Virus record (IMG/VR): IMGVR_UViG_2897341779_000002
Reading direction: 5' to 3' (one strand)
Source of the DNA: a virus
Lineage: Duplodnaviria > Heunggongvirae > Uroviricota > Caudoviricetes
Length of the DNA stretch: 42,611 nt
The translations under genes and the position numbers were made by a program. Within the stretch, counting starts at the first letter, position 1; the number at the start of each line of letters is the position of its first letter. Of this stretch, positions 1,065 to 41,214 are shown piece after piece. A model generated the notes under the pieces. The model was not told the origin of the DNA and searched no databases. It saw only the letters and a program-made list of their open reading frames with translations.

Positions 1065-1633
1065 TTAACCTCCTGCGGCGGTTCCGGTAGAGGCATCCAG
1101 TACAAGGCGTTCCCTAACCACGATAAAGTGCCGTCGCTCAACTCCACGTATTCCCCTTGTACCTGTCCTGCCATATACTCGCCGTGCTTTGAATAAATTA
1201 AAATCCAATCATCTTGAGCGGGCATTCGCTCACTACAGCTTATCCAACCATCCGGAGTTACCGGATAGTTGCCCGACAGCTCGTTCAACTTGTAAGTTTG
1301 GCTTACAGGTTCGGCTTCCAGTTCTGCAATGCGCTTCTCTGCAGCTTCCAGCTCAACGCGCAGCTTCCCTACCGTTAGCGCAATTTCCTCGTTCTCCTGG
1401 TCGCGGCGTTTGATGTATTGCTGGTTTCTTTCCCGTTCATCCAGCAGCGCCAGCACGGTTTCTGGTCCGGTCAGAAATTTGAAGGCGTTGAGCGCATCAA
1501 TATCCACACCGTAATCCTTAAGTTCCTGTTCACTTAACAAATCATCATCAACTGGCAACATTAACAGGCGTTCCATTGCCGGAATTGCACGTTCTGCCGC
1601 CTCACGCAGTGCCTGATAGTTAATTTTGGTCAT
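1061..1633 (-). CDS. hypothetical early protein, coiled-coil N-terminus with DUF551-like C-terminus
   Basis: 190-aa ORF; C-terminal W-x-PLPEPP motif recalls the DUF551 family found in lambdoid early-left regions. Confidence 0.65.
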   Translation of the reverse strand: MTKINYQALREAAERAIPAMERLLMLPVDDDLLSEQELKDYGVDIDALNAFKFLTGPETVLALLDERERNQQYIKRRDQENEEIALTVGKLRVELEAAEKRIAELEAEPVSQTYKLNELSGNYPVTPDGWISCSERMPAQDDWILIYSKHGEYMAGQVQGEYVELSDGTLSWLGNALYWMPLPEPPQEVN

Positions 1634-1634
1634 A

Positions 1635-1934
1635 TCACATCCCCCTGAAGCCGTTGCATTTACGTAAAAAATCGCAGATATAGCCCTTCATTTTTTCGTG
1701 CCAATCTCGATCATTCCCATTGCACCAACCATCAGGTGGAGTCCAGTTTTCTATCAGAGCAGCCATTTTCTTTGCTTTCGCCGGAGTAGCTGTTGCGGTA
1801 TCGCAGTAATGACGAGTGTCAACCAACGTATCCATACCATCGATATCAAGTACGCAAAACCATGTGTGATTCGGCATTTCAACAGATGGTATTTGTTGCC
1901 CACGTCGACGTTTATCAATAAGACATACAGTCAC
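1635..1934 (-). CDS. hypothetical early protein (99 aa)
   Basis: ORF tightly packed between neighbouring minus-strand genes (2-nt gap, 4-nt overlap). Confidence 0.5.
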   Translation of the reverse strand: MTVCLIDKRRRGQQIPSVEMPNHTWFCVLDIDGMDTLVDTRHYCDTATATPAKAKKMAALIENWTPPDGWCNGNDRDWHEKMKGYICDFLRKCNGFRGM

Positions 1935-2467
1935 TGGTTGCCTCCTTTGCGAAGCTGGGCAGCAAAGTCAACTAACCACTCAGTCATTTCAACCTTCCCT
2001 ACCAGGTCTGAACCAGGGTGCATACAGCAATCACTCTGCGCCGCTTTGAAATCCTTATACTCATATTCTTGGGCCACCAGATTTTTTGCAGCTTCTATAG
2101 CAGCATCCACCCCCTGCGCCCGCACTTCAGCCAGAAAAGCATCGGTGGCTGGGGTTTCAGTAACATCATCTTCCCATTCGCTAAACTCCTCACGACAAAA
2201 GTCATTAAATTCCTTCTCAGATTGCTTAAGTGAGGTATTTTCAGCAGCCATCTTCGCGCATTTAGCCTCAAGGTTATCAATCGTGATTCCAGCAGAACTA
2301 CACTCCCGCAACGCCGTTTCCAGTTTTGATTCAAGTTCACCGAACTTACGGACAAGGTATTCAGCGTTTGTTTCGTTAACCTTTAAATCACTTGGGATGC
2401 ATTTACCTTTCAGAAAACCATCCATCTCAATTAGTGACATTTGTTTCATTTCTTCCCACTCCGCCAC
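1931..2467 (-). CDS. hypothetical early protein (178 aa), acidic with predicted coiled coil
   Basis: Long ORF in the leftward operon; composition resembles Ea22-type early proteins; function unknown. Confidence 0.6.
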   Translation of the reverse strand: MAEWEEMKQMSLIEMDGFLKGKCIPSDLKVNETNAEYLVRKFGELESKLETALRECSSAGITIDNLEAKCAKMAAENTSLKQSEKEFNDFCREEFSEWEDDVTETPATDAFLAEVRAQGVDAAIEAAKNLVAQEYEYKDFKAAQSDCCMHPGSDLVGKVEMTEWLVDFAAQLRKGGNQ

Positions 2468-2543
2468 ATCGCATTCAGATATTTGTTGTCATTAACAGAA
2501 CCGAAACTCTTTCTCTTAAGCAAGTCCTCTCATGGTAAATTCC

Positions 2544-2840
2544 TCAGTCATTACTGATAGCGCCATAGCGTGAGCGGTAATTACGCAGGCGCGGGTCGAT
2601 ATATTCAGGGAAGTGGGTATATGTGGCTTTGCGGAATGGTCGGATTGATGTCTGGTAAATTCGCTCGCGTTCTTCTTTCTCTGCAAGCCATATACAGTGG
2701 CGAAATTCCTTTTCCTCTTTCGTTTCCTGCGGTAGAGACATTATTCGATCGTAGTTTTTTCTGAATTTATCCAGCACCTCCGATACGGAATTGCCGGAAC
2801 AGCGGCGCGGGTCATCCGCACCATACAAAGGCGCTGGCAT
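2544..2840 (-). CDS. hypothetical early protein (98 aa)
   Basis: ORF in the leftward operon; no recognised domain. Confidence 0.55.
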   Translation of the reverse strand: MPAPLYGADDPRRCSGNSVSEVLDKFRKNYDRIMSLPQETKEEKEFRHCIWLAEKEERERIYQTSIRPFRKATYTHFPEYIDPRLRNYRSRYGAISND

Positions 2841-2863
2841 AATTAAATCCTTATTTTTCTAAA

Positions 2864-3247
2864 TCAGAATGGGATGGAATCGTCGTATTCAGGATTATTT
2901 TGATGATTGCTACTTTGCTGCTGTTGGCTGTTTCCTGAAGTTGCAAATCCAATCTTTGCATTCAGTAATTCAAGAGTGATTGATTGACCATTTTGCCCCT
3001 GATAAACATCAACCCTGATGTTTTCTCCGGTAATTTCTACAATGCCTCCTTCAACCAGAACGCTACGATAGTAATCCGCTTGCGCTCCCGGCTTGGCAAA
3101 TACAACGGCGCTGTAGTTTGTCCATTCTTTCTTTTTTGTCTGGCGATCGTAATACTGAACGCCAGCACGGATGTTGAATCCGATATTTTCCCCGCCCTGA
3201 AACTCTCTTGCGGGTTTGTTTAGTCTTACTGTAATCGAATGTGCCAT
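2864..3247 (-). CDS. single-stranded DNA-binding protein-like (127 aa)
   Basis: Start set at the internal Met (MAHSITV...) because it overlaps the erf stop as TAATG; C-terminal acidic tip ...PEYDDSIPF resembles the SSB DDDIPF tail. Confidence 0.6.
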   Translation of the reverse strand: MAHSITVRLNKPAREFQGGENIGFNIRAGVQYYDRQTKKKEWTNYSAVVFAKPGAQADYYRSVLVEGGIVEITGENIRVDVYQGQNGQSITLELLNAKIGFATSGNSQQQQSSNHQNNPEYDDSIPF

Positions 3248-3852
3248 TAAGCAGTTGCCCCTTCTAATTCGTCTCGTCTGATGTTGTAAACGTCCTGCGC
3301 TTTGTGCTGCTCCGGCGTCCCTTCGAGCATCTTCCACGCTTTGGCGAACGCCTGTTTAAGCTCTTCTACGGTGTTTTTCTGCATTGCTGCGTCAGTGAAT
3401 GCTTTTAGAACCTGTTCAGGTGTAAGTGATGGTTTTGATTGCTTTGCTGCTGCGTTCTGCTGATGTTTATGCTCGTCTGTATCTGCATCTTTCGCATCAT
3501 CAATGCCGAACAAACCATTGAGGCAATACTTGCGTGCATAAGAGCTTGTAGCTCCCGTAACTTGTGCAGAATCCATTCCTTTCTTGCTTTCTTCCTCTCG
3601 TGCAAGAGCGGTTGCCGTATGACTGTTTTCGCCATCGGTAATAGTTGCCGTGGCTTTCACGTAATACCGATCACCAATCAACACAACTTCATCGCTGATT
3701 GATAAAAACAGACCGTTCAGTAACGGCTTAACGCCTTCAAGAATATCTTCGCAGCTTCTGTATTTATATTTGCCGAATGAGTTGTACTGATTCTTTGGCG
3801 CGTTCAGATTCTCCTGAATAGCTGCCAGTCTTGCGTAAAATTCTTTGCTCAT
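3247..3852 (-). CDS. erf: Erf single-strand annealing recombination protein
   Basis: Translation from MSKEFYARLAAIQENLNAPKNQYNSFGKYKYRSCEDILEGVKPLL... matches my memory of P22 Erf; start chosen at MSKEFY with an upstream GAGAG. Confidence 0.85.
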   Translation of the reverse strand: MSKEFYARLAAIQENLNAPKNQYNSFGKYKYRSCEDILEGVKPLLNGLFLSISDEVVLIGDRYYVKATATITDGENSHTATALAREEESKKGMDSAQVTGATSSYARKYCLNGLFGIDDAKDADTDEHKHQQNAAAKQSKPSLTPEQVLKAFTDAAMQKNTVEELKQAFAKAWKMLEGTPEQHKAQDVYNIRRDELEGATA

Positions 3853-3953
3853 ATGATTGCTCTCAGAATGGACACGGCCCAAGGAAATAACGCTGATTTA
3901 ATACTTCGACTCGGGACAAATTAAGGCATACCCGCATTCCTTCGCGGTCACCA

Positions 3954-4112
3954 TTATGGCGATACCAGAGAGCTTTCTGCGTGTACATGCGTCTCTGTAA
4001 CTTGCTCTCCTTCACTGTGGTTGCAAGTGACATGAATATCTCCTTCGTTACCGATTAATTCTTTTATCTGACGAATGAATTCTTCGTCTGACCAGTTATC
4101 CGTAAAACTCAT
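3954..4112 (-). CDS. hypothetical small protein (52 aa) in the kil position
   Basis: ORF starting at the ATGA overlap with the cIII stop; no similarity recognised. Confidence 0.4.
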   Translation of the reverse strand: MSFTDNWSDEEFIRQIKELIGNEGDIHVTCNHSEGEQVTETHVHAESSLVSP

Positions 4113-6504: not shown

Positions 6505-6690
6505 ATGTACAAGAAAGATGTTATCGACCACTTCGGAACCCAGCGTGCTGTAGCTAAAGCGTTAGGCATTAGCGACGCAGCAGTCTCTCAGTGGAAGGAA
6601 GTCATCCCAGAGAAAGACGCCTATCGACTGGAAGTCGTTACAGCTGGCGCCCTGAAGTATCAAGAAAGCGCTTACCGCAAAGCGGCATAA
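6505..6690 (+). CDS. cro: Cro repressor (P22-type)
   Basis: 61-aa translation MYKKDVIDHFGTQRAVAKALGISDAAVSQWKEVIPEKDAYRLEVVTAGALKYQESAYRKAA matches P22 Cro from memory. Confidence 0.95.
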   Translation: MYKKDVIDHFGTQRAVAKALGISDAAVSQWKEVIPEKDAYRLEVVTAGALKYQESAYRKAA

Positions 6691-6722
6691 GCAAATTGCT
6701 CTTTAACAGTCATGGTCCTCAT

Positions 6723-6740
6723 TCCCGCCGAAATGCGGGA
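6723..6740 (+). promoter_or_regulatory. nutR boxB-like hairpin
   Basis: TCCCGCCGAAATGCGGGA (6-bp stem, 6-nt loop) between cro and cII; an identical copy occurs at nutL. Confidence 0.6.
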
Positions 6741-6798
6741 ATACAACGCGCATAAGTTGATGCGCATAACTTCTTATTTGTTAAGGAAATACTTACAT

Positions 6799-7092
6799 AT
6801 GGTTCGTGCAAACAAACGCAACGAGGCTCTAAGAATCGAGAGTGCGTTGCTTAACAAAATCGCAATGCTTGGAACTGAGAAGACAGCGGAAGCTGTGGGC
6901 GTTGATAAGTCGCAGATCAGCAGGTGGAAGAGGGACTGGATTCCAAAGTTCTCAATGCTGCTTGCTGTTCTTGAATGGGGTGTTGTCGACGACGACATGG
7001 CTCGATTGGCACGACAAGTTGCTTCGATTCTCACCAATAAAAAACGCCCGGCGGCAACCGAGCGTTCTGATCAAATACAAATGGAATTTTAA
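6799..7092 (+). CDS. cII: CII transcriptional activator (lambda-type)
   Basis: From the internal Met the 97-aa product MVRANKRNEALRIESALLNKIAMLGTEKTAEAVGVDKSQISRWKRDW... matches lambda CII from memory; AAGGA precedes the ATG at 6799. Confidence 0.9.
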   Translation: MVRANKRNEALRIESALLNKIAMLGTEKTAEAVGVDKSQISRWKRDWIPKFSMLLAVLEWGVVDDDMARLARQVASILTNKKRPAATERSDQIQMEF

Positions 7093-7114
7093 CAACATCC
7101 AACGAGGTAATTAT

Positions 7115-7387
7115 ATGCGAAACAAAGGCTTTAATCCACCTGATACACACAAAGAAGCTAAGCGTTTGCGCTTCCTTCGTTCCATTGATGAAAGAACTCA
7201 AATCTCTTTTGTGAAAGTTGCCAGAACTGAGCTTCTGAAGGCTGAGGCGAGGGCGTTGCTCCCGTCTCTACCAAAAGAGGAGGGATATACGTTCATTCCA
7301 AACGCATTTCTGGAAAAGCTTCTCAAAGAAGACATATCCGTAAGTCAGTTTAACGATGTTCTTAAGGTCTTTCGTCAAGGCAGGTAG
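7115..7387 (+). CDS. hypothetical protein (90 aa) between cII and the initiator gene
   Basis: ORF from ATG 7115 with GAGG upstream; ends 2 nt before the O-like gene. Confidence 0.55.
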   Translation: MRNKGFNPPDTHKEAKRLRFLRSIDERTQISFVKVARTELLKAEARALLPSLPKEEGYTFIPNAFLEKLLKEDISVSQFNDVLKVFRQGR

Positions 7388-7389
7388 TT

Positions 7390-8337
7390 ATGAGCAATAC
7401 AGCAAAAATCTACGATTTCAGCGCCGCACACGAGCGCAGGAGCAACAGGATGGAGAACCAGAAAACTGGTTACATTCCGTTGTACCGGAGCATTCTGAAA
7501 CAGTCATGGGCGAAAGATGTTTATCTTCGCACCCTGTGGGAAAACCTTCTCCTGAATGCCGCCAGAAAGCCATACAAAGCGAATTTCAAAGGTCATGAAT
7601 GGCATCTGCAACCCGGTCAACTGGTTGTGACAGCAGCTGATTTAGGTCTTCAGTTATGCGACAGACATGGCAAGCCAGCAAGCCGTGATCAGGTTGAGCG
7701 GATGCTTCAGGTTTTTGTGAAAGAGGGGATGATCTCCATTGATGGAGAGAAGCAAAAAGGCCGTGTGATAACCATCACAAATTACCATGAATATGCTCAA
7801 AAAATGGACAATTTACCCGCACATGAAGCCGCACAAACAACCGCACATGATGCCGCACATGATGAAGCCAGCAATAGCGCGGCTTTCAGCGTACATGCCG
7901 CACATGAAAGCGCACATGAAGCCGCACAAACAACCGCACATCATGAACAAGAAGGTATTAACAAGAATATAAATAATACCCCCCTACCCCCCAATGGGGG
8001 AGGCGATGGGCAGGTTAAACCTGAACGTCGCAAGGCAGAACGAATCGACTACGAATCCTTCCTGAACGCCTACAACACCGAAGTCGGTGACAGACTGCCA
8101 CACGCTGTTGCGGTCAACGAGAAACGAAAACGCCGCCTGAAGAAAATCATCCCGCAACTGAAAACGCCAAACGTGGACGGTTTCAGAGCGTATGTCAGGG
8201 CGTTTGTGCATCAGGCCAAGCCGTTTTACTTCGGAGACAACGACACGGGCTGGACGGCTGATTTTGATTACCTGCTGAGAGAAGACTCGTTAACGGGAGT
8301 TCGGGAAGGGAAGTTTGCAGACAGGGGGATTGCATGA
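7390..8337 (+). CDS. replication initiation protein (O-like)
   Basis: 315-aa ORF directly upstream of and overlapping the helicase gene; carries an internal iteron array encoding the repetitive [10 protein letters not shown] peptide. Confidence 0.8.
7816..7980. repeat. origin-like iteron array plus AT-rich segment inside the initiator gene
   Basis: About eight CCGCACATGA-type direct repeats at 7816..7944 followed by AT-rich AACAAGAATATAAATAATA, the lambda-type ori layout. Confidence 0.65.
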
Positions 8338-10618: not shown

Positions 10619-11029
10619 GTGAAGCAAACAATATTCCTCCGAACTAAGCAACAACAGCAAGCTGCAATAAATGCCATCCTCGCAACACCACTCGATAAAG
10701 ACAAGCCAGTCACCATCCGCATTACTGACTACAAGCGCAACCTTGACCAGAACGCAAAATTTCACGCGATGGTCGCAGATATCGCTAGGCAAGTTCAGTG
10801 GCGCGATAAATGGTTAAAACCAGAACAATGGAAGGTTTTGTTGATCAGCGGTCATGCAGTGGCAACAAAACAGGAAGCTGATGTTTTGCCCGGGCTTGAA
10901 GGCGAATACGTCAACATTCGCGAAAGCAGCGCGCAGATGAGTGTGAAGCGTATGGCAAGTCTGATCGAGTACACAACAGCATGGGCTATTGGTCAGGGTG
11001 TCAGATTTACCGACAGGAGGTACGAATGA
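10619..11029 (+). CDS. ninB: NinB (Orf-family recombination protein)
   Basis: 136-aa translation resembles lambda NinB as recalled (...[33 protein letters not shown]...). Confidence 0.8.
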
Positions 11030-11202
11030 GGCGACAGCGACGAAGTATCACCGACATCATCTGCGAAAACTGCAAATACCTTCCAACGAAACGCACCAGA
11101 AATAAACGCAAGCCAATCCCAAAAGAATCTGACGTAAAAACCTTCAACTACACGGCTCACCTGTGGGATATCCGGTTGCTAAGACATCGTGCGAGGAAAT
11201 GA
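11028..11202 (+). CDS. ninE: NinE
   Basis: From ATG 11028 the product [50 protein letters not shown]... matches lambda NinE from memory. Confidence 0.8.
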
Positions 11203-11204
11203 CA

Positions 11205-11624
11205 ATGGATTATTCACAGTTAAGTGATTTTGAAATTAACAGACGAGTATGTGAGGCTTTAGATATGGAGGAGCATTTCTTCATACCTGATGACGAAGCA
11301 GACTTCGATTCTGAGATCCCCACTGACGAAAGAGGTCCTATTTGGCAGACGCAAAAAAGGGATATTAATGGCTTCCGTTCTTCAAACGGAAATTGCTTCA
11401 ATCCTTGCAATAATCCTGAATACGCGTGGCCAATTATCACTGAAAGCAAAATCAGCACTATGTGGATGACAGCGGAAAAAGAATGGTGCGCATGGTCAGG
11501 AGGTGATTTAGAGGAAGGTTGTTGGGAATGGGAAAATATTCCTGGCTACTACTTCTGCGGTGAATCTCCACTCCGCGCCGCCATGATTGTATTTCTCATG
11601 ATGCAGGACGCCAATAATGCTTAG
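11205..11624 (+). CDS. hypothetical nin-region protein (139 aa, Cys/Trp-rich)
   Basis: ORF from ATG 11205 immediately after the ninE stop; overlaps the ninF start. Confidence 0.6.
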   Translation: MDYSQLSDFEINRRVCEALDMEEHFFIPDDEADFDSEIPTDERGPIWQTQKRDINGFRSSNGNCFNPCNNPEYAWPIITESKISTMWMTAEKEWCAWSGGDLEEGCWEWENIPGYYFCGESPLRAAMIVFLMMQDANNA

Positions 11625-11793
11625 CCCATCCCAATCCCTTCAATACCAGAAAGAAAGCGTCGAGCGGGCATTAACGTGCGCTAACTGCGGTCAGAAGCTG
11701 CATGTGCTTGAAGTTCACGTGTGCTCCGATTGCTGCGCAGAACTGATGAGCGATCCGAATAGCTCAATGTACGAGGAAGAAGACGATGAATGA
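11617..11793 (+). CDS. ninF: NinF
   Basis: 58-aa ORF absent from the supplied track (under 60 aa): MLSPSQSLQYQKESVERALTCANCGQKLHVLEVHVCSDCCAELMSDPNSSMYEEEDDE, matching lambda NinF from memory. Confidence 0.75.
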   Translation: MLSPSQSLQYQKESVERALTCANCGQKLHVLEVHVCSDCCAELMSDPNSSMYEEEDDE

Positions 11794-12508
11794 GTTAATG
11801 AATGGCAATGCCATCAAAATGACAAGCATTGAAATTGCTGAGTTGGTTGGTAAGCGTCATGACAATGTGAAACGTACCATCGAAACGCTGGCTAAAAATG
11901 GTGTTATCCGGCTTCCTCAAATTGAGGTTTCCGAAAGAATCAATAACTTAGGGTTCAATGTTCAGTACGAGCATTACGTCTTCGAGGGCGAACAAGGTAA
12001 GCGAGACAGTATTGTCGTTGTTGCCCAGTTGTCGCCAGAGTTCACCGCTCGCCTTGTTGACCGCTGGCGAGAGCTTGAAGAAGCTGCGGTTAATATCCCC
12101 AAAACGCTACCGGAAGCGTTGCGCCTTGCTGCCGATCTTGCTGAGCAGAAAATGCAACTGGAAAACCAGCTCGCAATTGTCGCACCTAAAGTTGAGTTTG
12201 CCGATCGCGTTGGCGAGGCCAGCGGAATTTTGATTGGAAACTTTGCAAAGGTTGTTGGTATTGGTCAAAACAAACTGTTTGCGTGGATGCGTGATCACAA
12301 AATCCTTATTGCTTCAGGTTCCCGGCGCAATGTGCCAATGCAGGAATATATGGATCGCGGCTATTTCACAGTGAAAGAAACAGCGGTCAACACAAATCAC
12401 GGAATACAGATATCGTTCACCACAAAAATCACCGGGCGTGGTCAACAGTGGCTGACCAGAAAGCTGCTCGATAACGGAATGCTGAAAGTAACAGGGGAGG
12501 CTGCTTAA
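11786..12508 (+). CDS. phage regulatory / antirepressor-like protein (Rha-type N-terminus, KilA-C-like C-terminus)
   Basis: 240-aa ORF; domain assignment is from general resemblance only. Confidence 0.6.
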   Translation: MNELMNGNAIKMTSIEIAELVGKRHDNVKRTIETLAKNGVIRLPQIEVSERINNLGFNVQYEHYVFEGEQGKRDSIVVVAQLSPEFTARLVDRWRELEEAAVNIPKTLPEALRLAADLAEQKMQLENQLAIVAPKVEFADRVGEASGILIGNFAKVVGIGQNKLFAWMRDHKILIASGSRRNVPMQEYMDRGYFTVKETAVNTNHGIQISFTTKITGRGQQWLTRKLLDNGMLKVTGEAA

Positions 12509-27301: not shown

Positions 27302-28753
27302 ATGGCTACGTGGCAACAGGGTATTAATTCTGGTGGGTTTCTGGCTGGCATCGGTACGCAAAATGAGAATGCGCCAAAGGCAAGCGACATTAACGCAACG
27401 CTTGGTCTGATCCGCGAAAACAATGAACTGGCTCGATCAGGTGCAAATAACGTTGCTCTGACAGGTCTTCGTGGTCTGGCTGGAGTTGCTGATATTTATA
27501 AGCAGCAGCAAAAGCAGGAGCGTAAAGCGGCATTCCAGAAAGGTTATGCGGATGCTTATGCGTCCGGCGACAGGGAGCAGATGCGTAATCTTATTACAGC
27601 ATTCCCCGAAGAGTTTGAGGAAGTCCGTAAAGGCATGGGGTATGTCGATGACGCCCAGCGGGATGATTTTGGCAATCTGGCGCTTAAGGCTCAGGTCGCT
27701 TCGTCGCTTGGTCCGGGTGCATTTGGCAGGTTCATGATGGATAACGAAAAGGAGATGCGTCGTTTAGGTATCCCTCCAGAAACTATTGCGGAAATGCAGG
27801 TTAATGACCCGCAGGGCTTCCAGCACTTCGCAGGTAATCTGGCACTATTTTCTCTCGGTCATGAGAAGTATTTCGATATCAAAGATCAAATGGAAGGTCG
27901 GGATATTGAGCGTGGCAAGTTGGCAGAGACGATTCGCAGCAATAAAGCTGGGGAAGGTTTAAAGGCGCAAAGCATTGCTGTTAGCCGTGAAAACTCCCTG
28001 CGCACTGCTGGAGGTGCTGTTCCTGCATCTGTTAAAGAATATCAATATTTCAACAGCCTGTCTCCAGAGCAACAAAAGACATATCTTCGTGTTCGAGGTC
28101 GTCCTGATGCTGGCGGGGAGAATGTTGTGCAACTGGCAGATGGCAGAACGGTAACGGTTGGTAGGAAGCTTCACGGCGCTGGTGCTAATGCGTTCTACGA
28201 AGGAATAGACAACGAGGGCAATATGATTCGCGTCCCCGCCAGTTCTATTGCTGCTCCGGCTACATCGGCAGCTAATGCACAGAATTACGAAATGAAGAAA
28301 GATCTTGATGCAATTTCTGGCGCATCAATTGACGATCTTGGCTTCATGACAGGTATTACAGGTTCTTCAGGTTCTTTTGCTCTTGGTGCAGATATTCGTA
28401 GCAGGGCATCTGGTGTTGAGGAGAGGAGGCTATACAACGCTGCACAGCGAATCATGGGCAAAATGCAAAATCAGGGGATTGCAGCAGCCCGAGATATGGG
28501 GGCATCTGGCATCAACACCGAAGCAGAGGCCAATAGGTATTTTCAGGGTATGCCAAAGCCTGATTTCTCAAGTCCTGAAGCGCTGCAACAATCAATGCGC
28601 GACATTCAGCAATATACCGACAATTACAACCAGCAATATAACGTTAATGTTGGTAATGGCGGGAAGAAATCATCAAGGCAACAGCCAGCTACTCAGCAAT
28701 CAGCAGGAGGTAGCTACACGTCAAAATCAGGCATTCAATTTACGGTGGAATGA
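27302..28753 (+). CDS. ejection (injection) protein, gp20-like
   Basis: 483-aa ORF in the gene 20 position. Confidence 0.7.
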
Positions 28754-30765
28754 TGAAAGTAACTGCAAATGGTAAGACATTTACCTTTCCTGATGGTACG
28801 AGCACGGAAGATATTGGGTCCGCCATTGATGAGTATTTTGCTGGTCAGTCAGCGCCAACACAACAAGGTGTTCAGCAATCGCCAGCAGACAACTCACTTG
28901 CATCAGGATATGCACAGCTTGCCACTCAGCAGAAGGAAGGACTAGATCGCTCTGCTGAGCAAGGGGCTGTTTTAGGTGCTGCAATGCGCGATGCCGTTAC
29001 CGGTGAAAGCCGAATGACACCAGAAATGGAGAGACTGCAAAATGTTGGGGCTGCCCCTGAGTTGAACTCACTAAGCATGGATGCCCTGAAGGCTGGATGG
29101 TCTCAACTTTTCGGCTCCGACGCGTCTCAGGAAAAGATTCTTCAGAGTATGGGGGCGAAATTAAGGCAGGATGAGAAGGGTAACACTATCGTTTCCCTGC
29201 CATCCGGTGATTATGCCCTGAACAAGCCAGGTTTATCACCGCAAGACCTGACTTCGTTTCTTGCTAATGCGTTAGCGTTCACACCAGCGGGCAGGGCTGG
29301 AACGGTGCTTGGTGCCATAGGGAAATCAGCTGCTACAGATTTAGCACTACAGGGTGGCACCAGCCTTGCTGGCGGAGAAGATATTGATCCTGCACAAACG
29401 GTAATTTCTGCTGGCATTGGTGGTGTTGGCAAGGGGCTGGAAAATACAGTTAGTGCGGTTTCCAGGGCTGTTCGCGGTGAGATGTCACCGGAAGCAAAGG
29501 CTGCTGTCGATTTTGCGTCGGAAAGAAACCTGCCGTTAATGACCAGTGACACGCTGAAAGATAAAACCTTTATGCAGAGTCAGGCTCAGACATTAGGCGA
29601 AAGAGTTCCTTTTTTTGGAACCGGTAAGAATCGGCTGAATCAACAACAAGCACGAGAAAATTTAGTCAGAACATTTAGCGATGGTCTGGGTGGCATTTCT
29701 GATAAACAGCTTTATGAATCTGCGACTAAAGGGCAACAAAAATTCATTGAGGCAGCAGGAAAGCGATATAACCGCATAATTGACGCTATGGGGGATACCC
29801 CTGTCGATCTCTCAAACACGGTAAAAGCTATCGACAATCAGATTGCCGTGTTAAGCCGCCCGGGCAAATCTCAGGATAGAGCCGCGGTAAAAGTCTTGCA
29901 GCAATTTAAAGACGATATCACCAGCGGACCCAATGACCTGCGTCTGGCGAGAGAAAACAGAACTGACCTTCGAAAGCGGTTCATGAATTCAAACGAGACT
30001 GTTGATAAAGACACGCTCCAGAAAGCCAGCGATATTGTCTACAAGGCATATACAGCGGATATGAAAAAAGCAGTATCCCAAAAACTAGGCTCAGAAGAAG
30101 CTGCCAATATGTCTAGGGTTGATCGCTCATGGGCTAGATTCAATGACATGATGGGAAGAACGCGCGTTCAAAAGGCAATAGCCAGCGGCAAGGCTACACC
30201 TGAGGATGTAACAAAACTCGTTTTTAGCCAAAACCCATCAGAACGTTCTCAGCTTTACATGCTTCTGGATGACAATGGTAGGCAAAACGCACGAGCAGCC
30301 ATAGTTCAGAATGCTGTAGATAAGGCGACTGATCCGTCTGGAAATATTAGTGTTGAAAAGTTTATTAATGCGTTACACCGGAACAGGAAGCAATCAGCAA
30401 CTTTCTTTAAAGGCGTACATGGAAAGGAACTGGACGGCGTTATTAAATACCTCAACGATACAAGACACGCGGCAAAAGCGAACGTTCAAAACTTAAATGG
30501 TCAGCAGCTTTATGGATTGTTAGTTGGTGGTGGCATCATAAACGCAGCAGTATTAGCGGGGATGCTAAAAACGGCTGCGTTTGTTGTTCCTGCTGCTGGT
30601 GTCGTAGGAGGAGCTGCGAAGGCATACGAAAGCCCTGTTATACGAAATGCCTTGTTACGTCTGGCAAATACGCCAAAAGGTAGCACAGCATATGACAGAG
30701 CGATCAGTACGGTCACACAATCGCTCACCAGAGTCGCACAGGCATCACAAAAAGAAGCTCAATAA
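28750..30765 (+). CDS. ejection (injection) protein, gp16-like
   Basis: 671-aa ORF in the gene 16 position, overlapping the preceding stop. Confidence 0.7.
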
Positions 30766-31883: not shown

Positions 31884-32333
31884 ATGCAAGTAACCGTGGA
31901 ATATAATCAGGATAGTTTTGACTATTTTTTCTCCCCGGTTTTTGTTGAGTTTCCTGATTTAAAACAAACACTTGTAGATGATTTTATCATCTACAAGTCT
32001 ACGGGAACGTTGCCCAGCTATTTTGGCAGAGACACCTCTTATCATCGACCTCCTGATATTGAAGATGCAGGCCTTATGCACCTTCATTTAGCAATTGGTG
32101 AAAATAAATTTGAGCCAATAAAAAATGGCACAGATATCAGCACACCGCAAAAGTTGCAGTGGCATAAAACATCCAATACCGCTCTCGTTTATGCACAAAA
32201 TCTTTTTGATGAGAACAGGTATTCATTGATTGCTCTTTTTCATCCTGTAGCTCACATGTCTGCTAACAATCATAATAGAATGAGAGTGTTAGCAGGGTAT
32301 GCGAGAGACTTTAGAAACACTATGTTTGACTAA
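31884..32333 (+). CDS. YafO-family toxin-like protein
   Basis: 149-aa product shares motifs with E. coli YafO as I recall it: DFIIYKSTGTLPSYFGRD vs DFISYKRDGVLPDIFGRD; HLHLA vs HIHLA; ALVYAQNLFDE vs HLVYCQGAFDE; SLIALFHPVAH...NNHNRM vs LLIAILKPEPH...RDNNQM. Confidence 0.7.
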   Translation: MQVTVEYNQDSFDYFFSPVFVEFPDLKQTLVDDFIIYKSTGTLPSYFGRDTSYHRPPDIEDAGLMHLHLAIGENKFEPIKNGTDISTPQKLQWHKTSNTALVYAQNLFDENRYSLIALFHPVAHMSANNHNRMRVLAGYARDFRNTMFD

Positions 32334-32381: not shown

Positions 32382-32918
32382 TCAAACAACCCACCAGTTT
32401 GCCTGATTGGATGCCAGCCTTGCAGTTTTTATGGAATTAATTATGCCATGCTCAAGAGCCTTGTTAGCATCCAAAATGGTCGAGTCTGCTATCAGGGATG
32501 CCCACCTAATATGGGTTCCGATGTCGATATTGAACGTCTCAACGAAGCGATCAAGATCGTTATCGAGGCATTTCCCGTACTCTCTCAATCTGGCATGGTC
32601 GGCGGCTGGGGAGGCAAAGCACCATAATAGAGGATGTAACAGGAATCTTGATAATGGGTTTGCGAAACGTTCTGAGCCAGCCAGGAAAACGATATTAGCT
32701 ATGGATTCAACATTGCTTATGTTGTGAGTTCTAACGGTAACAGGGAGTGACTTAAGAAAGTTATACGCAGTAAAGCCAGCAGCAGTTTCCCCTCCCTGAC
32801 TTGATATATGGATATTTAATTCAGTTGCGCCTTGAGATAATGCGGTGAGACAGTGGTTCTGAAGTTGCCCAACAGTGGCAGTGTTAACAGGGCATAAGAA
32901 ATGAATTGTGTGCAGCAT
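32382..32918 (-). CDS. ClpP/S14-S49-fold serine peptidase-like protein (178 aa)
   Basis: ISSQGGETAAGFTAYNFL aligns with the ClpP INSPGG...AG segment and a His is conserved near LHPLLW; ATG overlaps the mnt stop (TAATG). Confidence 0.6.
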   Translation of the reverse strand: MLHTIHFLCPVNTATVGQLQNHCLTALSQGATELNIHISSQGGETAAGFTAYNFLKSLPVTVRTHNISNVESIANIVFLAGSERFANPLSRFLLHPLLWCFASPAADHARLREYGKCLDNDLDRFVETFNIDIGTHIRWASLIADSTILDANKALEHGIINSIKTARLASNQANWWVV

Positions 32919-34568: not shown

Positions 34569-34587
34569 CAGATAACCAACGCAACGA

Positions 34588-34610
34588 CCCAGCTTCGGCT
34601 GGGTTTTTTT
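34588..34610 (+). terminator. rho-independent terminator after ant
   Basis: CCCAGC-TTCG-GCTGGG followed by TTTTTTT. Confidence 0.6.
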
Positions 34611-34668
34611 ATGCCCAAAATTCACCGTGGCCATGCTGCGGCGATTCTTTGCATCTGGAGCAAATTAA

Positions 34669-34697
34669 ATGACAGACATTACAGCCAATGTGATTGT
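34669..34697 (+). other. orphaned 5' end of the tailspike gene (codons 1-10, MTDITANVIV)
   Basis: ATG with GGAG RBS encodes MTDITANVIV, the conserved P22-family tailspike N-terminus; the frame is broken by the IS at 34698 and resumes after 37278. Confidence 0.75.
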
Positions 34698-34890
34698 TGC
34701 GTATTTTCATGAAAGGAGATCACTCAATAACTTCCATCGAGATCGGGTAATAACATTTGAACAGATCGCTGAATAACATCGATGGAGATCACTTTTGACT
34801 CATTTTGTTATTCAGTGATCTCCATCAATGTTATTGGAACTTCACAGGTGTGTTGATCTGTATCTTTTGCCATTCCGGTAAAGGATACCT

Positions 34891-36432
34891 ATGCCAACAG
34901 TTCCAATTTCTATGAGAAAACTTAAAGAAATTCTTAGGCTTAAATACGGTGTTGGACTCAGCCATCGACAAATTGGTCGTAGTCTTGCAATCTCCCCTTC
35001 CGTTGTATCCAGATATGCTAATCGGGCGGCTCAACTTGGCATAAAGCAGTGGCCCTTACCTACAGGATGGGATGATACAAAACTAAAACATGCGTTCCTT
35101 CAGACCCAGGTTAAGATGAAGAAGCACTCTCTGCCTGACTGGGCTACAGTACACCGGGAACTGCGTAATAAATGCGTGACGCTGCAGCTACTCTGGGAAG
35201 AATACTGTGAGCGTAATCCAGGCGGTTTTTACAGCTATAACCATTACTGCCGGATGTACCGTGAATGGCTCAAAACCACTTCACCATCAATGCGTCAGGT
35301 ACATAAAGCTGGCGAAAAACTTTTCGTTGATTACTGTGGACCTACCGTTGGCGTTACCGACCCTGAGACCGGAGAAATAAGAACTGCTCAGGTCATCGTA
35401 GCTGTTCTCGGGGCATCAAGTTACACATGGGCAGAGGCCACCTGGTCTCAGCAGCTTGAAGACTGGGTGATGAGTCATGTTCGCTGCTTCCAGTGGTTGG
35501 GTGGCGTTCCTGAACTTGTTGTTCCGGACAATCTGAAAAGCGCCACATCCAGGGCATGTAAGTATGATCCTGACGTTAACCCTACCTACCAGCAGATGCT
35601 TGAGCATTATAATGTCGCAGTTTTGCCTGCGCGGCCACGTAAACCGAAAGATAAAGCCAAAGCTGAAGTTGGCGTTCAGGTTGTTGAACGCTGGATCATG
35701 GCCCGAATCAGGCATGAGATCTTCTACAGCCTTGCATCGCTTAATCAGCGCATTCGGGAGTTGCTGGAAAGACTGAATAACAAAATAATGCAGAAGTTGG
35801 GTTATTCACGTGCAGAACTCTTCATCCAGCTTGATAAACCCGCACTGAAGCCTCTTCCTGAAGCCAGTTACAGTTACACCCTGGTGAAGAAAGTCAGAGT
35901 TCATGCCGATTACCACGTGGAAATCGACAAACATTACTACTCGGTTCCATGTTCGCTGTTAGGCCAGCAACTGGAAGCATGGATCTCCGGAGAACTGGTA
36001 AGACTCTTCAATCAGGGGCAGGAGGTTGCTGTGCACCCGCGCAAGCGTACTTATGGCTACAGTACCCGCAACGAGCACATGCCTGAAGCTCATCGACAGC
36101 ATGCCACCTGGACGCCAGAGCGTCTTCTGGAATGGGCGGGGCACATAGGCAGTGAAACTCATAGTTATGTGCTTCATATACTGAACTCTCGTCCACATCC
36201 GGAACAAAGCTATCGCTTCTGCCTTGGACTCCTGAACCTTCATAAAAAATACAGTAAAGCCAGACTTAATGCAGCATGTGCAAGAGCTCTGAAAACAAAG
36301 GTATGGCGTCTGTCAGGTATTAAATCGATCCTGGAAAAAGGTCTGGATAAACAACCTGTTCAGGATCCAAAACCAGATCTGTTATCCACGATGGAACACG
36401 AAAACGTACGCGGCAGTGAGTATTACCACTGA
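34891..36432 (+). CDS. istA: IS21-family transposase IstA
   Basis: 513-aa ORF with N-terminal HTH-like segment and DDE-type integrase core, immediately followed by istB. Confidence 0.85.
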   Translation: MPTVPISMRKLKEILRLKYGVGLSHRQIGRSLAISPSVVSRYANRAAQLGIKQWPLPTGWDDTKLKHAFLQTQVKMKKHSLPDWATVHRELRNKCVTLQLLWEEYCERNPGGFYSYNHYCRMYREWLKTTSPSMRQVHKAGEKLFVDYCGPTVGVTDPETGEIRTAQVIVAVLGASSYTWAEATWSQQLEDWVMSHVRCFQWLGGVPELVVPDNLKSATSRACKYDPDVNPTYQQMLEHYNVAVLPARPRKPKDKAKAEVGVQVVERWIMARIRHEIFYSLASLNQRIRELLERLNNKIMQKLGYSRAELFIQLDKPALKPLPEASYSYTLVKKVRVHADYHVEIDKHYYSVPCSLLGQQLEAWISGELVRLFNQGQEVAVHPRKRTYGYSTRNEHMPEAHRQHATWTPERLLEWAGHIGSETHSYVLHILNSRPHPEQSYRFCLGLLNLHKKYSKARLNAACARALKTKVWRLSGIKSILEKGLDKQPVQDPKPDLLSTMEHENVRGSEYYH

Positions 36433-36443
36433 TACGGGATCCA

Positions 36444-37193
36444 ATGATGAATCATCTTTACGAACAACTGACCGCACTTAAACTCACCGGCTTCCGTGAT
36501 GCGCTTAAAAAGCAACTTGCTCAGCCGGGCACATACCAGGAGCTGGGCTTCGAAGAACGCCTGTCATTACTGACAGCAGAAGAACTAACCTGCCGTGAAA
36601 ACAGGAAGGCAGAGCGTCTGATCAAACATGCACGGTTCAGACTTAATGCTGAGTTATCAAAGCTGGATTATCGTAACAATAGAGGGCTGGACAGGGCCCT
36701 CATCCGTTCACTCAGTCAGGGAAACTGGTTAACCCTGAAACAAAATATTTTACTGACCGGGGCCACCGGCAGCGGTAAAACGTTCCTGGCATGTGCACTT
36801 GGTCATAATGCCTGCCGACAGGGATACAAGGTCTACTATTATCGCCTTAAAGCGCTGATGGAACAGTGCTATCAGGGGCATGCTGATGGAAGATACAGCA
36901 AACTTTTGACCAGGCTGAATAATAGCGATCTGCTGCTTCTGGATGACTGGGGGCTGGAACCTCTCTCATCAGAACAGCGTAGCGACCTGCTGGAAATAGT
37001 GGATCTGATGTACCAACGAGGCTCAATCATCGTAGTGAGCCAGTTGCCGGTGGAAAACTGGTACAAAATGATCGGAGACTCCACACATGCGGATGCCATC
37101 CTAGATCGACTGGTTCATGGCAGTATCAAGATCGAACTTAAAGGAGAATCAATGCGGAAAATACAATCACCGTTGACCGAAGGAGATCAGTGA
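36444..37193 (+). CDS. istB: IS21-family helper ATPase IstB
   Basis: 249-aa ORF with Walker A LTGATGSGKTFLACAL and Walker B LLLLDDWG. Confidence 0.9.
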   Translation: MMNHLYEQLTALKLTGFRDALKKQLAQPGTYQELGFEERLSLLTAEELTCRENRKAERLIKHARFRLNAELSKLDYRNNRGLDRALIRSLSQGNWLTLKQNILLTGATGSGKTFLACALGHNACRQGYKVYYYRLKALMEQCYQGHADGRYSKLLTRLNNSDLLLLDDWGLEPLSSEQRSDLLEIVDLMYQRGSIIVVSQLPVENWYKMIGDSTHADAILDRLVHGSIKIELKGESMRKIQSPLTEGDQ

Positions 37194-37287
37194 AGGTAAT
37201 TTAAAAACGGTTCTGTGAAAGTGACACGAACCGATCTCCATCGATGTTACTCACCGATCTCCTTCACGGTAATACGCAATTGTATCG

Positions 37288-40200
37288 ATGCCTTCGCAAC
37301 TCTTCACTATGGCGCGTTCTTTTAAAGCCGTAGCCAATGGCAAAATTTATATCGGTAAAATTGACACTGACCCGGTAAATCCTGAAAACCGGATTCAGGT
37401 TTATGTAGAGAACGAAGACGGCTCTCACGTTCCTGTTTCGCAACCAATCATCATTAACGCTGCTGGTTACCCTGTATATAACGGACGGATTGCCAAGTTC
37501 GTAACTGTGCAAGGCCATTCTATGGCTGTGTACGATGCGTATGGCGTACAGCAGTTCTATTTCCAGAATGTGCTGAAGTATGATCCTGATCAACTACGGC
37601 AGCAATTAGAAGACCCAGATGGAGCGAATAAATACCCAAAACTTCAGATAGCAAGATGGAGAGACAGTTATGATGTAAGAGGTTGGGGGGCTATTGGTGA
37701 TGGTGTTCATGATGATACATCAGCTCTATCAGAATTACTTTCTGTTGCAACAGGTGGTGAAAAGATAGATGGGCGAGGGCTTACTTTTAAAGTATCAACT
37801 CTTCCAGATGTCAGTCGATTTAAAAATGCTCGTTTTTTATTTGAGAGAATACCGGGTCAGCCTCTTTTTTATGTTTCTGAAGATTTTATCCAGGGAGAGT
37901 TATTTAAAATTACAGATACACCGTGGTACAACGCCTGGACGCAGGATAAAACGTTTGTATATGACAATGTCATCTATGCGCCTTTTATGGCTGGAGACCG
38001 CCATGGTGTAAATAACCTCCATGTTGCATGGGTTCGCTCAGGAGATGACGGGAAGACCTGGACAACGCCGGAATGGCTTACAGATTTACATGAAAACTAT
38101 CCCACAGTTAACTATCACTGCATGAGTATGGGGGTTGTCAGAAATCGCCTTTTTGCTGTAATTGAGACGCGGACCGTGAGCGGAAATAAACTGCAGGTTG
38201 CAGAGTTGTGGGATCGCCCAATGAGTCGCAGCCTTCGCGTTTATGGTGGTATAACGAAAGCAGCAAATCAGCAAGTCGCTTATATTCGCATTACTGATCA
38301 CGGATTATTTGCTGGTGATTTTGTCAACTTCTCAAACTCTGGTGTTACAGGTGTTACCGGGAATATGACGGTGACTACTGTTATTGATAAAAATACTTTT
38401 ACAGTTACGACGCAAAATACCCAGGATGTGGATCAGAATAACGAGGGTAGATACTGGAGTTTTGGTACATCATTTCACTCGTCACCATGGAGAAAAACCA
38501 GTCTTGGAACTATTCCTTCTTTTGTTGACGGAAGCACTCCTGTTACTGAGATTCACAGTTTTGCGACGATTAGCGATAACAGTTTTGCTGTTGGCTACCA
38601 TAATGGTGATATTGGTCCACGCGAGCTTGGGATACTCTATTTCTCTGATGCTTTCGGTTCTCCTGGTAGCTTTGTTCGCAGACGCATACCTGCAGAATAT
38701 GAGGCGAATGCATCTGAGCCATGTGTAAAATATTATGATGGCATTCTGTATCTGACGACCAGGGGGACATTAAGTACTCAACCCGGTAGTTCATTGCACA
38801 GAAGCTCTGATTTAGGTACATCATGGAATTCTCTTCGCTTCCCAAATAATGTTCATCACTCAAACCTTCCTTTTGCCAAAGTTGGCGATGAGCTGATTAT
38901 TTTTGGCAGTGAGCGCGCATTTGGTGAGTGGGAAGGAGGAGAACCTGATAACCGTTATGCAGGAAACTATCCAAGAACATTTATGACCAGAGTTAACGTC
39001 AATGAGTGGAGTCTGGATAATGTAGAGTGGGTTAATGTTACTGATCAGATTTATCAGGGCGGAATAGTTAACTCTGCGGTTGGTGTTGGTTCAGTTTGTA
39101 TCAAAGACAACTGGCTGTACTACATTTTCGGTGGGGAAGACTTTCTAAACCCATGGAGCATAGGGGATAACAACAGAAAATATCCTTATGTTCACGATGG
39201 TCACCCGGCTGATTTGTATTGTTTCAGGGTGAAAATTAAACAGGAAGAATTTGTTTCAAGGGATTTTGTCTACGGAGCCACTCCTAACAGAACGCTTCCT
39301 ACTTTTATGTCGACGTCAGGCGTGAGGACGGTTCCTGTACCCGTTGATTTCACAGATGATGTTGCCGTCCAGTCACTGACTGTCCATGCAGGTACATCAG
39401 GACAAGTTCGCGCGGAAGTCAAACTTGAGGGTAATTACGCCATTATTGCGAAGAAAGTACCGTCTGATGATGTTACCGCTCAGAGATTAATCGTTAGCGG
39501 CGGTGAAACAACGTCTTCAGCAGATGGTGCAATGATAACGTTGCATGGTTCCAGAAGCAGTACTCCACGTCGCGCGGTATATAACGCACTCGAACATCTT
39601 TTTGAGAACGGAGATGTTAAACCTTATCTTGATAATGTAAATGCTCTTGGTGGTCCGGGAAACAGGTTCTCGATAGTTTATCTTGGCTCCAATCCTGTGG
39701 TTACCAGTGACGGAACATTAAAGACAGAGCCGGTCTCTCCTGACGAAACATTGCTGGATGCCTGGGGTGACGTCAGGTATATCGCTTATAAATGGCTGAA
39801 CGCTGTCGCTATAAAGGGGGAAGAAGGGGCGAGGATACATCATGGTGTAATCGCGCAGCAACTTCGTGATGTTCTTATTTCTCACGGACTCATGGAAGAA
39901 GAAAGCACAACATGCCGCTATGCCTTTCTTTGCTATGACGATTATCCCGCAGTATATGATGACGTCATTACTGGCCAAAGGGAAATGCCGCTGACTGATA
40001 ATGACGGGAGCATCATTGTTGATGAGGATGATAATCCAGTGATGGTAATGGAAGACATCATTGAGCGCGTTGAAATAACGCCAGCAGGATCTAGATGGGG
40101 GGTCAGACCTGATCTCTTATTCTATATCGAGGCAGCATGGCAGCGCAGAGAAATAGAAAGAATAAAAGCTAGGTTAGACTTAATAGAAGGGAAGCACTAA
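37288..40200 (+). CDS. tailspike body: P22-type head-binding domain fused to an endosialidase-like domain and C-terminal intramolecular chaperone domain; separated from its first 10 codons by the IS
   Basis: N-terminal ...[39 protein letters not shown]...VLKYDPDQ matches the P22 tailspike head-binding domain; Asp-box-like SGDDGKTW and SSDLGTSW; C-terminal S-DGTLK (Ser/Lys at i, i+5) and [10 protein letters not shown] recall the endosialidase chaperone domain. Confidence 0.8.
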
Positions 40201-40353: not shown

Positions 40354-41214
40354 ATGTTAAGACTCAAGACTCAAGACTCAAGACTCAAGACTCAAGACTC
40401 AAGACTCAAGACTCAAGACTCAAGACTCAAGACTCAAGACTCAAGACTCAAGACTCAAGACTCAAGACTCAAGACTCAAGACTCAAGACTCAAGACTCAA
40501 GACTCAAGACTCAAGACTCAAGACTCAAGACTCAAGACTCAAGACTCAAGACTCAAGACTCAAGACTCGTTTTCCGTTGATGATAATGGGTCAGGTAATG
40601 TTTTTGTATGTGGAGATCTTGTAAATAGCAAAGAGAATAAAGTTCAGTTCAATGGAAACAATAACAAACTTATTATAGAAGATGATGTTGAGTGTCGATG
40701 GCTTACCGTAATATTTAGGGGTGATAATAATTACGTAAGAATACATAAAAACAGTAAGATTAAAGGTGATATTGTCGCAACAAAAGGTTCAAAAGTTATT
40801 ATCGGTAGAAGAACGACAATAGGTGCAGGTTTTGAAGTCGTCACTGATAAGTGCAATGTTACAATTGGCCATGACTGCATGATAGCAAGAGATGTTATTT
40901 TGCGTGCATCAGATGGGCATCCTATATTTGATATTCATAGCAAAAAAAGGATTAATTGGGCAAAAGATATCATTATATCTAGTTACGTATGGGTAGGGAG
41001 AAATGTCTCTATAATGAAAGGAGTATCTGTTGGAAGCGGATCTGTCATTGGGTATGGGAGTATTGTAACTAAAGATGTGCCATCTATGTGTGCAGCAGCC
41101 GGTAATCCAGCAAAAATAATAAAAAGAAATATAATATGGGCAAGAACGGATAAAGCGGAGCTAATTAGTGATGACAAGAGATGCTCCAGCTATCATGCGA
41201 AGCTCACGCAATAA
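40354..41214 (+). CDS. neuO: phase-variable polysialic acid O-acetyltransferase NeuO-like (hexapeptide-repeat acyltransferase)
   Basis: 286-aa ORF: N-terminal RLKTQDS x10 encoded by AAGACTC heptads, then left-handed beta-helix hexapeptide repeats (IGAGFEV, IGHDCMI, VGRNVSI, VGSGSVI, IGYGSIV); location downstream of the tailspike as described for CUS-3. Confidence 0.85.
   Translation: MLRLKTQDSRLKTQDSRLKTQDSRLKTQDSRLKTQDSRLKTQDSRLKTQDSRLKTQDSRLKTQDSRLKTQDSFSVDDNGSGNVFVCGDLVNSKENKVQFNGNNNKLIIEDDVECRWLTVIFRGDNNYVRIHKNSKIKGDIVATKGSKVIIGRRTTIGAGFEVVTDKCNVTIGHDCMIARDVILRASDGHPIFDIHSKKRINWAKDIIISSYVWVGRNVSIMKGVSVGSGSVIGYGSIVTKDVPSMCAAAGNPAKIIKRNIIWARTDKAELISDDKRCSSYHAKLTQ
40359..40568 (+). repeat. 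30 tandem copies of the heptanucleotide AAGACTC inside the neuO 5' coding region
   Basis: Counted directly: 210 bp of perfect AAGACTC repeats = 30 units, a multiple of 3, so the reading frame is maintained. Confidence 0.9.

Follow-up and report, generated by a model that had tools for sequence, protein, structure and literature searches.

Interruption of the endosialidase tailspike gene of a CUS-3-type prophage by an ISEc12-type insertion sequence

Introduction

In phage P22, DNA-filled particles that lack spikes are stable and non-infectious, and they are activated by tailspike added in vitro. In P22-like phages, the tailspike gene stands at the distal end of the Q-dependent late operon, with the ant moron between it and the other genes (PMC2629481). 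In the P22-like phage CUS-3, the tailspike SiaK1 is annotated with direct-assay evidence of endosialidase activity in CP000711 (PMID 16689790). Here we describe the IMG/VR record IMGVR_UViG_2897341779_000002, a 42,611-nucleotide stretch of viral DNA (Caudoviricetes; hereafter the window), in which the tailspike gene of a CUS-3-type prophage is split near its 5' end by an insertion sequence (IS) of 2581 bp.

We regard it as practically certain that an ISEc12-type IS is inserted in the tailspike gene. The best overall explanation, which we hold to be very probable, is that ISEc12 split the gene and that the prophage probably yields few or no infectious particles. Taken separately, the functional claim is somewhat less secure, though poor infectivity is predicted as the most likely outcome. 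The insertion site is new, while the IS family and the prophage family are known; a literature search found no publication on this particular insertion allele.

Break in the tailspike gene and the restored protein

The coordinates of the features are listed in Table 1. The GGAG sequence of the native start is spaced 8 nt from the ATG at 34669, and 29 nt of the tailspike open reading frame (ORF) precede the break at 34697, giving MTDITANVI (nine codons) and two bases of Val10. The first T of the IS keeps codon 10 as Val. The element begins with TGCGTATT and ends with AATACGCA. On one side of the IS lie the native Shine-Dalgarno sequence, the start ATG and the first codons, on the other the remaining 971 codons. 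Deletion of the IS and one ATTGT copy in silico gives an uninterrupted ORF of 2946 nt encoding 981 residues, with no internal stop. A preliminary description of this locus had placed the start with its ribosome-binding site at 34669, an IS of 2581 bp at 34698 with the ATTGT duplication, and the resumption of the gene at 37279, and recomputation reproduced every one of these coordinates. It had also put the split after codon 10; the insertion site is right, but the break falls after the second base of this codon. The 35-residue fusion product left at the native start is presumably a junk peptide. An in-frame TAA at 37270-37272 rules out that a longer frame runs out of the IS into the tailspike.

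The restored gene is identical to the intact tailspike gene of Escherichia coli S88 at 2946 of 2946 nt. The S88 and APEC O1 alleles encode the same protein as the restored gene, and 975 of the 981 residues (99.4%) of this protein are shared with SiaK1 of CUS-3. Around the break, at least 32 complete genomes, including those of APEC O1, S88 and NCTC11151, have an empty site with 100% identity to the restored junction over 600 bp. The insertion is clean, and its presence in several assemblies shows it to be heritable. The lack of any difference between the restored gene and the intact S88 allele makes it a recent event, with no decay of the gene afterwards.

The 970-residue ORF that remains downstream of the IS matches the Pfam family Head_binding (PF09008) with 194.5 bits over profile positions 12-113. 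Because the match begins at position 12, exactly the first 11 profile positions are missing. The ORF further contains the endosialidase N-extension, the β-propeller with a β-barrel insert, the stalk and the C-terminal Peptidase_S74 intramolecular chaperone (PF12218, PF12217 with 775 bits, PF12195, PF12219 and PF13884). In the PDB, residues 1-118 of the restored protein match the chain of the Sf6 entry 7SG7 (E = 2.7e-64) and residues 1-126 match that of the P22 entry 8TVR (E = 8e-49); the matches of the N-terminal domain include in-situ structures of the Sf6 and P22 tails. Residues ~145-817 match the endosialidases of K1F and phi92, with more than 1000 bits for 3GVL and 1V0E. Judged by these matches, the restored protein is of the K1-specific endosialidase type with a P22-like N-terminal head-binding domain. 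The PF09008 match of the truncated ORF and the 8TVR match of the restored protein bear out the resemblance to the P22 tailspike N terminus pointed out in the preliminary description, and the K1 host assumed there is implied by the endosialidase body.

Table 1. Coordinates of the split tailspike gene, the inserted element and flanking features in the window.
Feature	Position	Strand	Description
Intrinsic terminator 3' of ant and 5' of the tailspike start (tANT equivalent)	34586..34611	+	Stem-loop GACCCAGCTTCGGCTGGGTT, then T-run
Tailspike native translation start	34656..34697	+	GGAG Shine-Dalgarno 34656-34659, ATG 34669, first 29 nt
Residual fusion ORF	34669..34776	+	35 aa, translation MTDITANVIVAYFHERRSLNNFHRDRVITFEQIAE, then stop: 10 tailspike and 25 IS-encoded residues
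Left target-site duplication copy ATTGT	34693..34697	.	One copy only in intact genomes
Inserted element	34698..37278	+	2581 bp, same orientation as the tailspike gene; ends from 100%-identity blocks in other records; TG...CA termini
IS left end	34698..34835	.	Terminal inverted repeat TGCGTATTTTCATGAAAGGAGATC...; sub-terminal GGAGATC-containing repeats at ~34713-34727 and ~34777-34793, inverted copy at ~34814-34835 (repeat search)
istA, DDE transposase	34891..36432	+	513 aa; NCBIfam NF033546 (equivalog, IS21 family transposase) 310.5 bits, cut-off 160; Pfam rve and Mu-transpos_C_2; WP_001298859.1
istB, AAA+ helper ATPase	36444..37193	+	249 aa; NCBIfam NF038214 270 bits, cut-off 200; Pfam IstB_IS21 (PF01695) 227.5 bits; WP_001016257.1
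IS right end	37179..37278	.	Sub-terminal repeats 37180-37194, 37233-37249 and 37256-37272; terminal inverted repeat ending ...GGTAATACGCA
Right target-site duplication copy ATTGT	37279..37283	.
Remainder of the endosialidase tailspike gene	37284..40200	+	Longest ORF from ATG 37288 (Met12 of the intact protein), 970 aa
neuO, polysialic-acid O-acetyltransferase	40354-41214		AAGACTC tract 40359-40568, 30 repeats in frame, full 286-aa ORF, ON phase

The WP accessions in Table 1 are those of the Prokaryotic Genome Annotation Pipeline (PGAP).

Identity and distribution of the inserted element

The element was compared with the IS21 family with respect to an istA product with a DDE transposase, an istB product, TG...CA ends with sub-terminal repeats, a duplication of 4-8 bp, a length of ~2-2.7 kb, and mobility. 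Both genes lie on the same strand, and 11 nt separate the stop of istA from istB, the start of which we place at the ATG at 36444 versus 36447 in the PGAP annotation. The terminal inverted repeats are imperfect. On the left, direct and inverted GGAGATC repeats fall within the outer ~140 bp of the element, on the right within the outer ~100 bp, and their presence at both ends gives the layout of the IS21 family. With all these features found at the sequence level, the element is by its sequence a member of this family, and the NCBIfam and Pfam matches together with the end structure uphold the family given in the preliminary description. In the record NZ_AP043894.1 of E. coli JCM 20135, PGAP names both proteins "IS21-like element ISEc12 family". 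The name ISEc12 used here is this PGAP family label.

Copies with 100% identity to the 2581-bp element are present in S88, MS7163, EV36 and others. Of 5,426 complete E. coli genomes, 1,365 carry it at full length, at a median of 3 places per genome, on chromosomes and plasmids. JCM 20135 carries ISEc12 at 4 places, and a 100%-identical copy elsewhere on its chromosome is a possible donor. The exact copies at other loci, in S88 and in JCM 20135, bear duplications of their own (ACTGG, and TTTGC or CTTTGC). In the PhiR12 phage records, the element stands as a discrete block of 100% identity, the alignment ending exactly at 34698 and 37278. Transposition activity of the copy in the window is likely, because both of its ORFs are intact and identical to widespread alleles.

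Some locations of other copies should be noted. In the S88 chromosome (positions 1501-4081 of the extracted locus L024), an exact copy lies in a P2-family major capsid gene. Another, in JCM 20135 (L023, 1501-4081), interrupts a gene for an AAA ATPase that neighbours a phage-type replication endonuclease gene. In PhiR12_1 (L018, 3501-6081), ISEc12 is located between tail-fibre fragments, where the identity is 100% by alignment and an exact-string match failed. As deposited, the PhiR12 records are complete phage genomes and name K-12 and E. coli C as hosts.

A 600-bp probe of the left junction matched a single one of the 5,426 complete genomes, that of JCM 20135, which makes the insertion rare beside the at least 32 genomes with the empty site. 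Between intS and the xis-like torI gene, the window and the JCM 20135 prophage are equal base for base save for the number of repeats in neuO. The difference, 30 versus 26 repeats, indicates that the window is a distinct sequence record of the same lineage.

Expected effect on expression, virions and packaging

In the best explanation, ISEc12, of which this E. coli lineage has several copies, entered the tailspike gene by transposition after base 29, with its usual 5-bp duplication, in a simple insertion of the standard kind. The consequences are then to be considered from transcription to packaging. The homologous position of the intrinsic terminator between ant and the tailspike start carries a terminator annotation in HK620 and epsilon34. 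Pattern scans found no promoter-like site at the right end of the IS and no terminator-like site on the + strand inside it. A hybrid outward promoter at the right end was also considered and rejected; the sole −35-like hexamer, TTCACG at 37263-68 (found by eye), lacks a usable −10 at a spacing of 16-18 nt, and any transcript from it would begin at or past the ATG at 37288. With no promoter-like site at the right end, transcripts of the tailspike body must come from upstream read-through, which probably occurs across the IS. An "antiterminator Q family protein" is annotated in the prophage. On induction, the Q-antiterminated late transcript through the ant region would still cross the IS, and the Q-modified polymerase would ignore any terminator inside it.

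The position of the remaining start codon should be noted in this context. The energy of the duplex with the anti-Shine-Dalgarno sequence is −5.6 kcal/mol at the native start, and the median of the long ORFs in the window is −5.95 kcal/mol. At the ATG at 37288 it is −2.8 kcal/mol, which ranks at the 47th percentile among the 916 ATGs of the window, so that its Shine-Dalgarno sequence is no better than that of a random ATG. The poor ribosome-binding site at this internal ATG and the dependence on read-through from the IS, both proposed in the preliminary description, are in agreement with these values and with the two scans. Ribosomes would start only at Met12, with no Shine-Dalgarno sequence to guide them, and little protein would be made.

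The protein that is made would lack residues 1-11 of the head-binding domain and would attach poorly or not at all to heads. The start GGAGCAAATTAAATG is common to CUS-3, epsilon34, Gally and Sf6, and HK620 has one extra A. Both the GGAG-N8-ATG start and the residues lost here are conserved across CUS-3, HK620, Sf6, epsilon34 and Gally, although the receptor-binding bodies of these phages are unrelated; for residues 1-11 the conservation is to be taken qualitatively, since the extra residue of HK620 makes per-position numbers unusable. In P22, suppressors of the head-binding-defective mutation D100N map to residue 13. In the 2.8-Å structure of the Sf6 tail, the tailspike is ordered in situ from residue 4 to residue 123, and residues 4-16 form one of two segments that differ among the three protomers, an asymmetry that lets the trimer dock on the hexameric hub (PMC9728967). 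Endosialidases that lack the whole N-terminal domain and comprise residues ~145-817 fold and were crystallised, as seen in PDB entries, which suggests that the catalytic part should fold here as well. With the endosialidase body and the C-terminal chaperone intact, the product would still fold and cut polysialic acid.

Packaging may be affected in addition. The headful of P22 is 43,400 ± 650 bp (PMC8402733), a value used here as a proxy, as no headful size was found for phages of the CUS-3 type. The additional 2.6 kb bring the genome to 42.8 kb, near a P22-type headful. If the headful is P22-like, the terminal redundancy would decrease from ~3.2 kb to ~0.6 kb, which is within the scatter of the headful cut, and the redundancy needed for circularisation would be nearly lost.

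Several observations weigh against poor infectivity, and they could be explained by a mild effect of the insertion, in which a Met12-initiated tailspike is made from read-through mRNA, trimerises and docks, and the phage is infectious. The ORF is fully open with all domains present, and the head-binding core (residues 17-106 in Sf6) is kept. PGAP handles the 970-residue ORF as a normal gene, annotated as "phage tailspike protein" (WP_032190887.1) and not as a pseudogene. The context of the ATG at 37288 is A/U-rich and weakly structured (local fold −8.5 kcal/mol); some Shine-Dalgarno-independent initiation at Met12 is possible, and the transcript would reach it through an IS with no predicted + strand terminator-like site. 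P22 virions can infect with only about 3 of the 6 spikes, so that low expression could suffice. The description of the Sf6 tail does not state that residues 4-11 contact the hub, and the truncated spike might still bind (PMC9728967). The packaging argument leans on the P22 headful as stand-in. The absence of further mutation in the restored gene may be cited as well, although it fits a recent event equally. Nevertheless, the start at 37288 ranks with random ATGs, the lost residues are conserved among P22-like phages and fall in the protomer-variable segment of the assembled Sf6 tail, and the genome is near the headful limit. We therefore consider a mild phenotype unlikely. The preliminary description had likewise judged impairment of the virions probable, unless the IS excises or the truncated protein is expressed and works. 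The net outcome that we expect of the insertion is a stable lysogenic-conversion element that probably releases few or no infectious particles, an ordinary case of IS-driven decay of a prophage.

Lesions of the tailspike gene in other genomes

The endosialidase gene was found in 193 of the 5,426 complete genomes. In most of the rows of these genomes the gene is uninterrupted, and 180 of the 193 keep at least 80% of it in one place. Other lesions are nevertheless present. In NCTC11151 (L012) and FY26 (L013), an IS3-family element occupies the same coordinates (10716-12027) in the tailspike gene, at about codon 315, and a second IS3-family copy lies in the ClpP-like gene of the ant moron (6683-7994). 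Strain 2022E04-002 also has IS3 in the tailspike gene, and only 3' remnants of the gene are left in N58, E12053, N63 and Eco_23-2678, 4 of the sampled genomes.

These independent lesions in other lineages, with neuO intact and in the ON phase in the window, could suggest that the insertion was selected. Loss of the tailspike would then domesticate the neuO prophage, keeping O-acetylation and immunity and preventing its loss by productive induction or the release of capsule-degrading particles. The frequencies given above, however, do not favor selection, as the ISEc12 allele is confined to one complete genome and the large majority of the carriers retain most of the gene. The NCTC11151/FY26 prophage has been hit by an IS in an unrelated gene too, and ISEc12 is also found in other prophage structural genes. 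The pattern fits random decay of a 3-kb target, and knockout of the tailspike stops neither induction nor lysis. We consider selection of the insertion improbable. Equally improbable, in our estimation, is the wider proposal that combines the IS3-family hits with a reading of the allele of GCA_018158575.1 described below as the footprint of an imprecise IS21-family excision, according to which the tailspike gene is a recurrent and possibly selected target whose loss locks in a capsule-modifying prophage in K1 strains. The lesions look like the usual erosion that multicopy IS elements cause in prophage structural genes in the absence of selection.

In GCA_018158575.1 (L004), which has no IS at this site, the gene reads AATGTGAATTGTATCG where intact genomes read AATGTGATTGTATCG. 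One extra A is located exactly at the insertion point of ISEc12 (GTGAATTGTATCG; L004 positions 2490-2530, corresponding to 34690-34697 and 37279-37290 of the window). It frameshifts the tailspike, and the called product again starts at Met12. This allele may be the footprint of an imprecise excision or an independent frameshift. As a footprint, it could be taken as a sign that the IS acts as a reversible switch, excision of which restores the tailspike in a subpopulation and makes the prophage conditionally competent. The gene is, however, not restored in this allele, and a look-up by the Met12 product returns only alleles damaged in the first 33 nt, so that the position of the lesion was pre-selected and the coincidence amounts to ~1 in 10-30. 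Common descent with the IS-bearing lineage is not demonstrated either; the available 11.4 kb are as identical to S88 as to JCM 20135, for which reason assignment of L004 to that lineage was not upheld, and GCA_018158575.1 is not among the 4 listed places (of 15 contigs) with the lineage-specific gp16 variant described in the next section. IS21-family elements transpose via tandem or junction intermediates without routine precise excision. We consider a reversible switch very improbable.

Further assemblies were traced by the exact 970-residue product and by the gp16 variant. In GCA_900706755.1, both 41-nt junction strings are present within one 1.48-Mb contig. In the drafts GCA_014143315.1 (with 4 similar places) and GCA_965137265.1, contigs end in the right end of the IS and run through the identical junction of ...TAATACGCA with ATTGTATCGATG. 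An assembly artefact, which the preliminary description had named as the case that would leave a continuous frame, has the multicopy nature of ISEc12 as the sole point in its favor and is rejected as having a negligible probability, since the same two junctions occur in the complete genome, the 1.48-Mb contig and the window and the right junction at contig ends of at least 2 drafts, making at least 4 independent assemblies, and since a perfect 5-bp target duplication is a signature of transposition, not of misjoining.

The host prophage

The prophage that bears the IS is, according to its gene order and boundaries, of the P22-like CUS-3 type and integrated at the tRNA-Arg gene argW. P22-type ejection proteins, the ant moron, the tailspike, neuO with its AAGACTC tract, and an integrase beside argW follow each other. 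The 17-bp attachment core CTGCAGGGGACACCATT is found at the 3' end of the tRNA-Arg gene and beside dsdC, and its two copies delimit 42,832 bp. Subtraction of the IS and the duplication leaves a prophage of 40,246 bp, compared with 40,207 bp for CUS-3. The other virion genes are all annotated as intact, and neuO, the immunity genes and the integrase gene are intact as well.

The repeat tract of neuO is a known phase-variable contingency locus. Besides the 30 repeats of the window, there are 26 in JCM 20135, where the tract is out of frame and PGAP gives a 111-residue 3' fragment only, 19 in locus L005, 11 in L004, 34 in S88 and 39 in APEC O1.

Other genes of the prophage vary as well. The gp16-type ejection protein (28753-30765) is the lineage-specific variant WP_025857608.1, compared with WP_000868966.1 in APEC O1, S88, NCTC11151 and FY26; this variant is present on 15 contigs and is a useful marker of the IS-bearing lineage. 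The accessory cargo of the ant moron includes a YafO-family type II toxin gene (31884-32333, + strand) and a gene for a ClpP-like protease subunit (32382-32918, − strand) beside Arc-family repressor genes, and the YafO/ClpP-like cargo is also found in APEC O1 and S88. In the JCM 20135 prophage, PGAP flags 4 small pseudogenes (2 frameshifted and 2 partial) among accessory early and nin genes (L003, 33267-33588, 41157-41240, 42110-42364 and 42625-42910). The record of JCM 20135 cites "feces from diphtheria convalescent; lab stock", the origin story of K-12, yet the genome has 4.90 Mb and shares an identical argW flank and prophage with S88, a K1 strain of the ST95 type. The strain label or the metadata of JCM 20135 may be wrong.

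Discussion

The split has consequences for the use of these records. WP_032190887.1, the 970-residue "phage tailspike protein", should be regarded as the truncation product of a split gene and not as a natural short isoform. Prophage-prediction tools would score the 42.8-kb element as intact, though it is probably unable to form infectious particles. If a CUS-3-type phage or neuO phase variants are to be obtained from JCM 20135 or its relatives, induction without plaques is to be expected. The locus is one dated example of a multicopy IS eroding the virion genes of a prophage while the lysogenic-conversion cargo (neuO) stays, and it implies no new mechanism.

Comparison with known systems

The inserted element shows no detectable difference from ISEc12 of E. 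coli as labelled by PGAP; genes, ends and duplications are alike, and the insertion site alone is new. The prophage shares with CUS-3 (CP000711) the gene order, the near-equal length without the IS, and the tailspike identity given above. In CUS-3 of RS218, however, the tailspike gene is uninterrupted, whereas it is split by ISEc12 here, and the cargo of the ant moron is somewhat unlike that of CUS-3, as the annotation here includes Arc-family genes, a YafO-family toxin gene and a ClpP-like gene.

With respect to phenotype, the closest parallel is provided by the gene 9 mutants of P22 and their tailspike-less heads. The same phenotype would be expected here, but the cause differs, being an N-terminal truncation of 11 residues with loss of the ribosome-binding site and not an amber or folding mutation. 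The IS3-family insertion in NCTC11151 and FY26 is similar in that the same gene of the same prophage family is split by an IS, which PGAP flags there as two partial genes. It belongs to another IS family, points the opposite way and lies within the catalytic part, at about codon 315. The enzyme is certainly lost through that insertion, whereas the catalytic ORF is still complete after the insertion of ISEc12.

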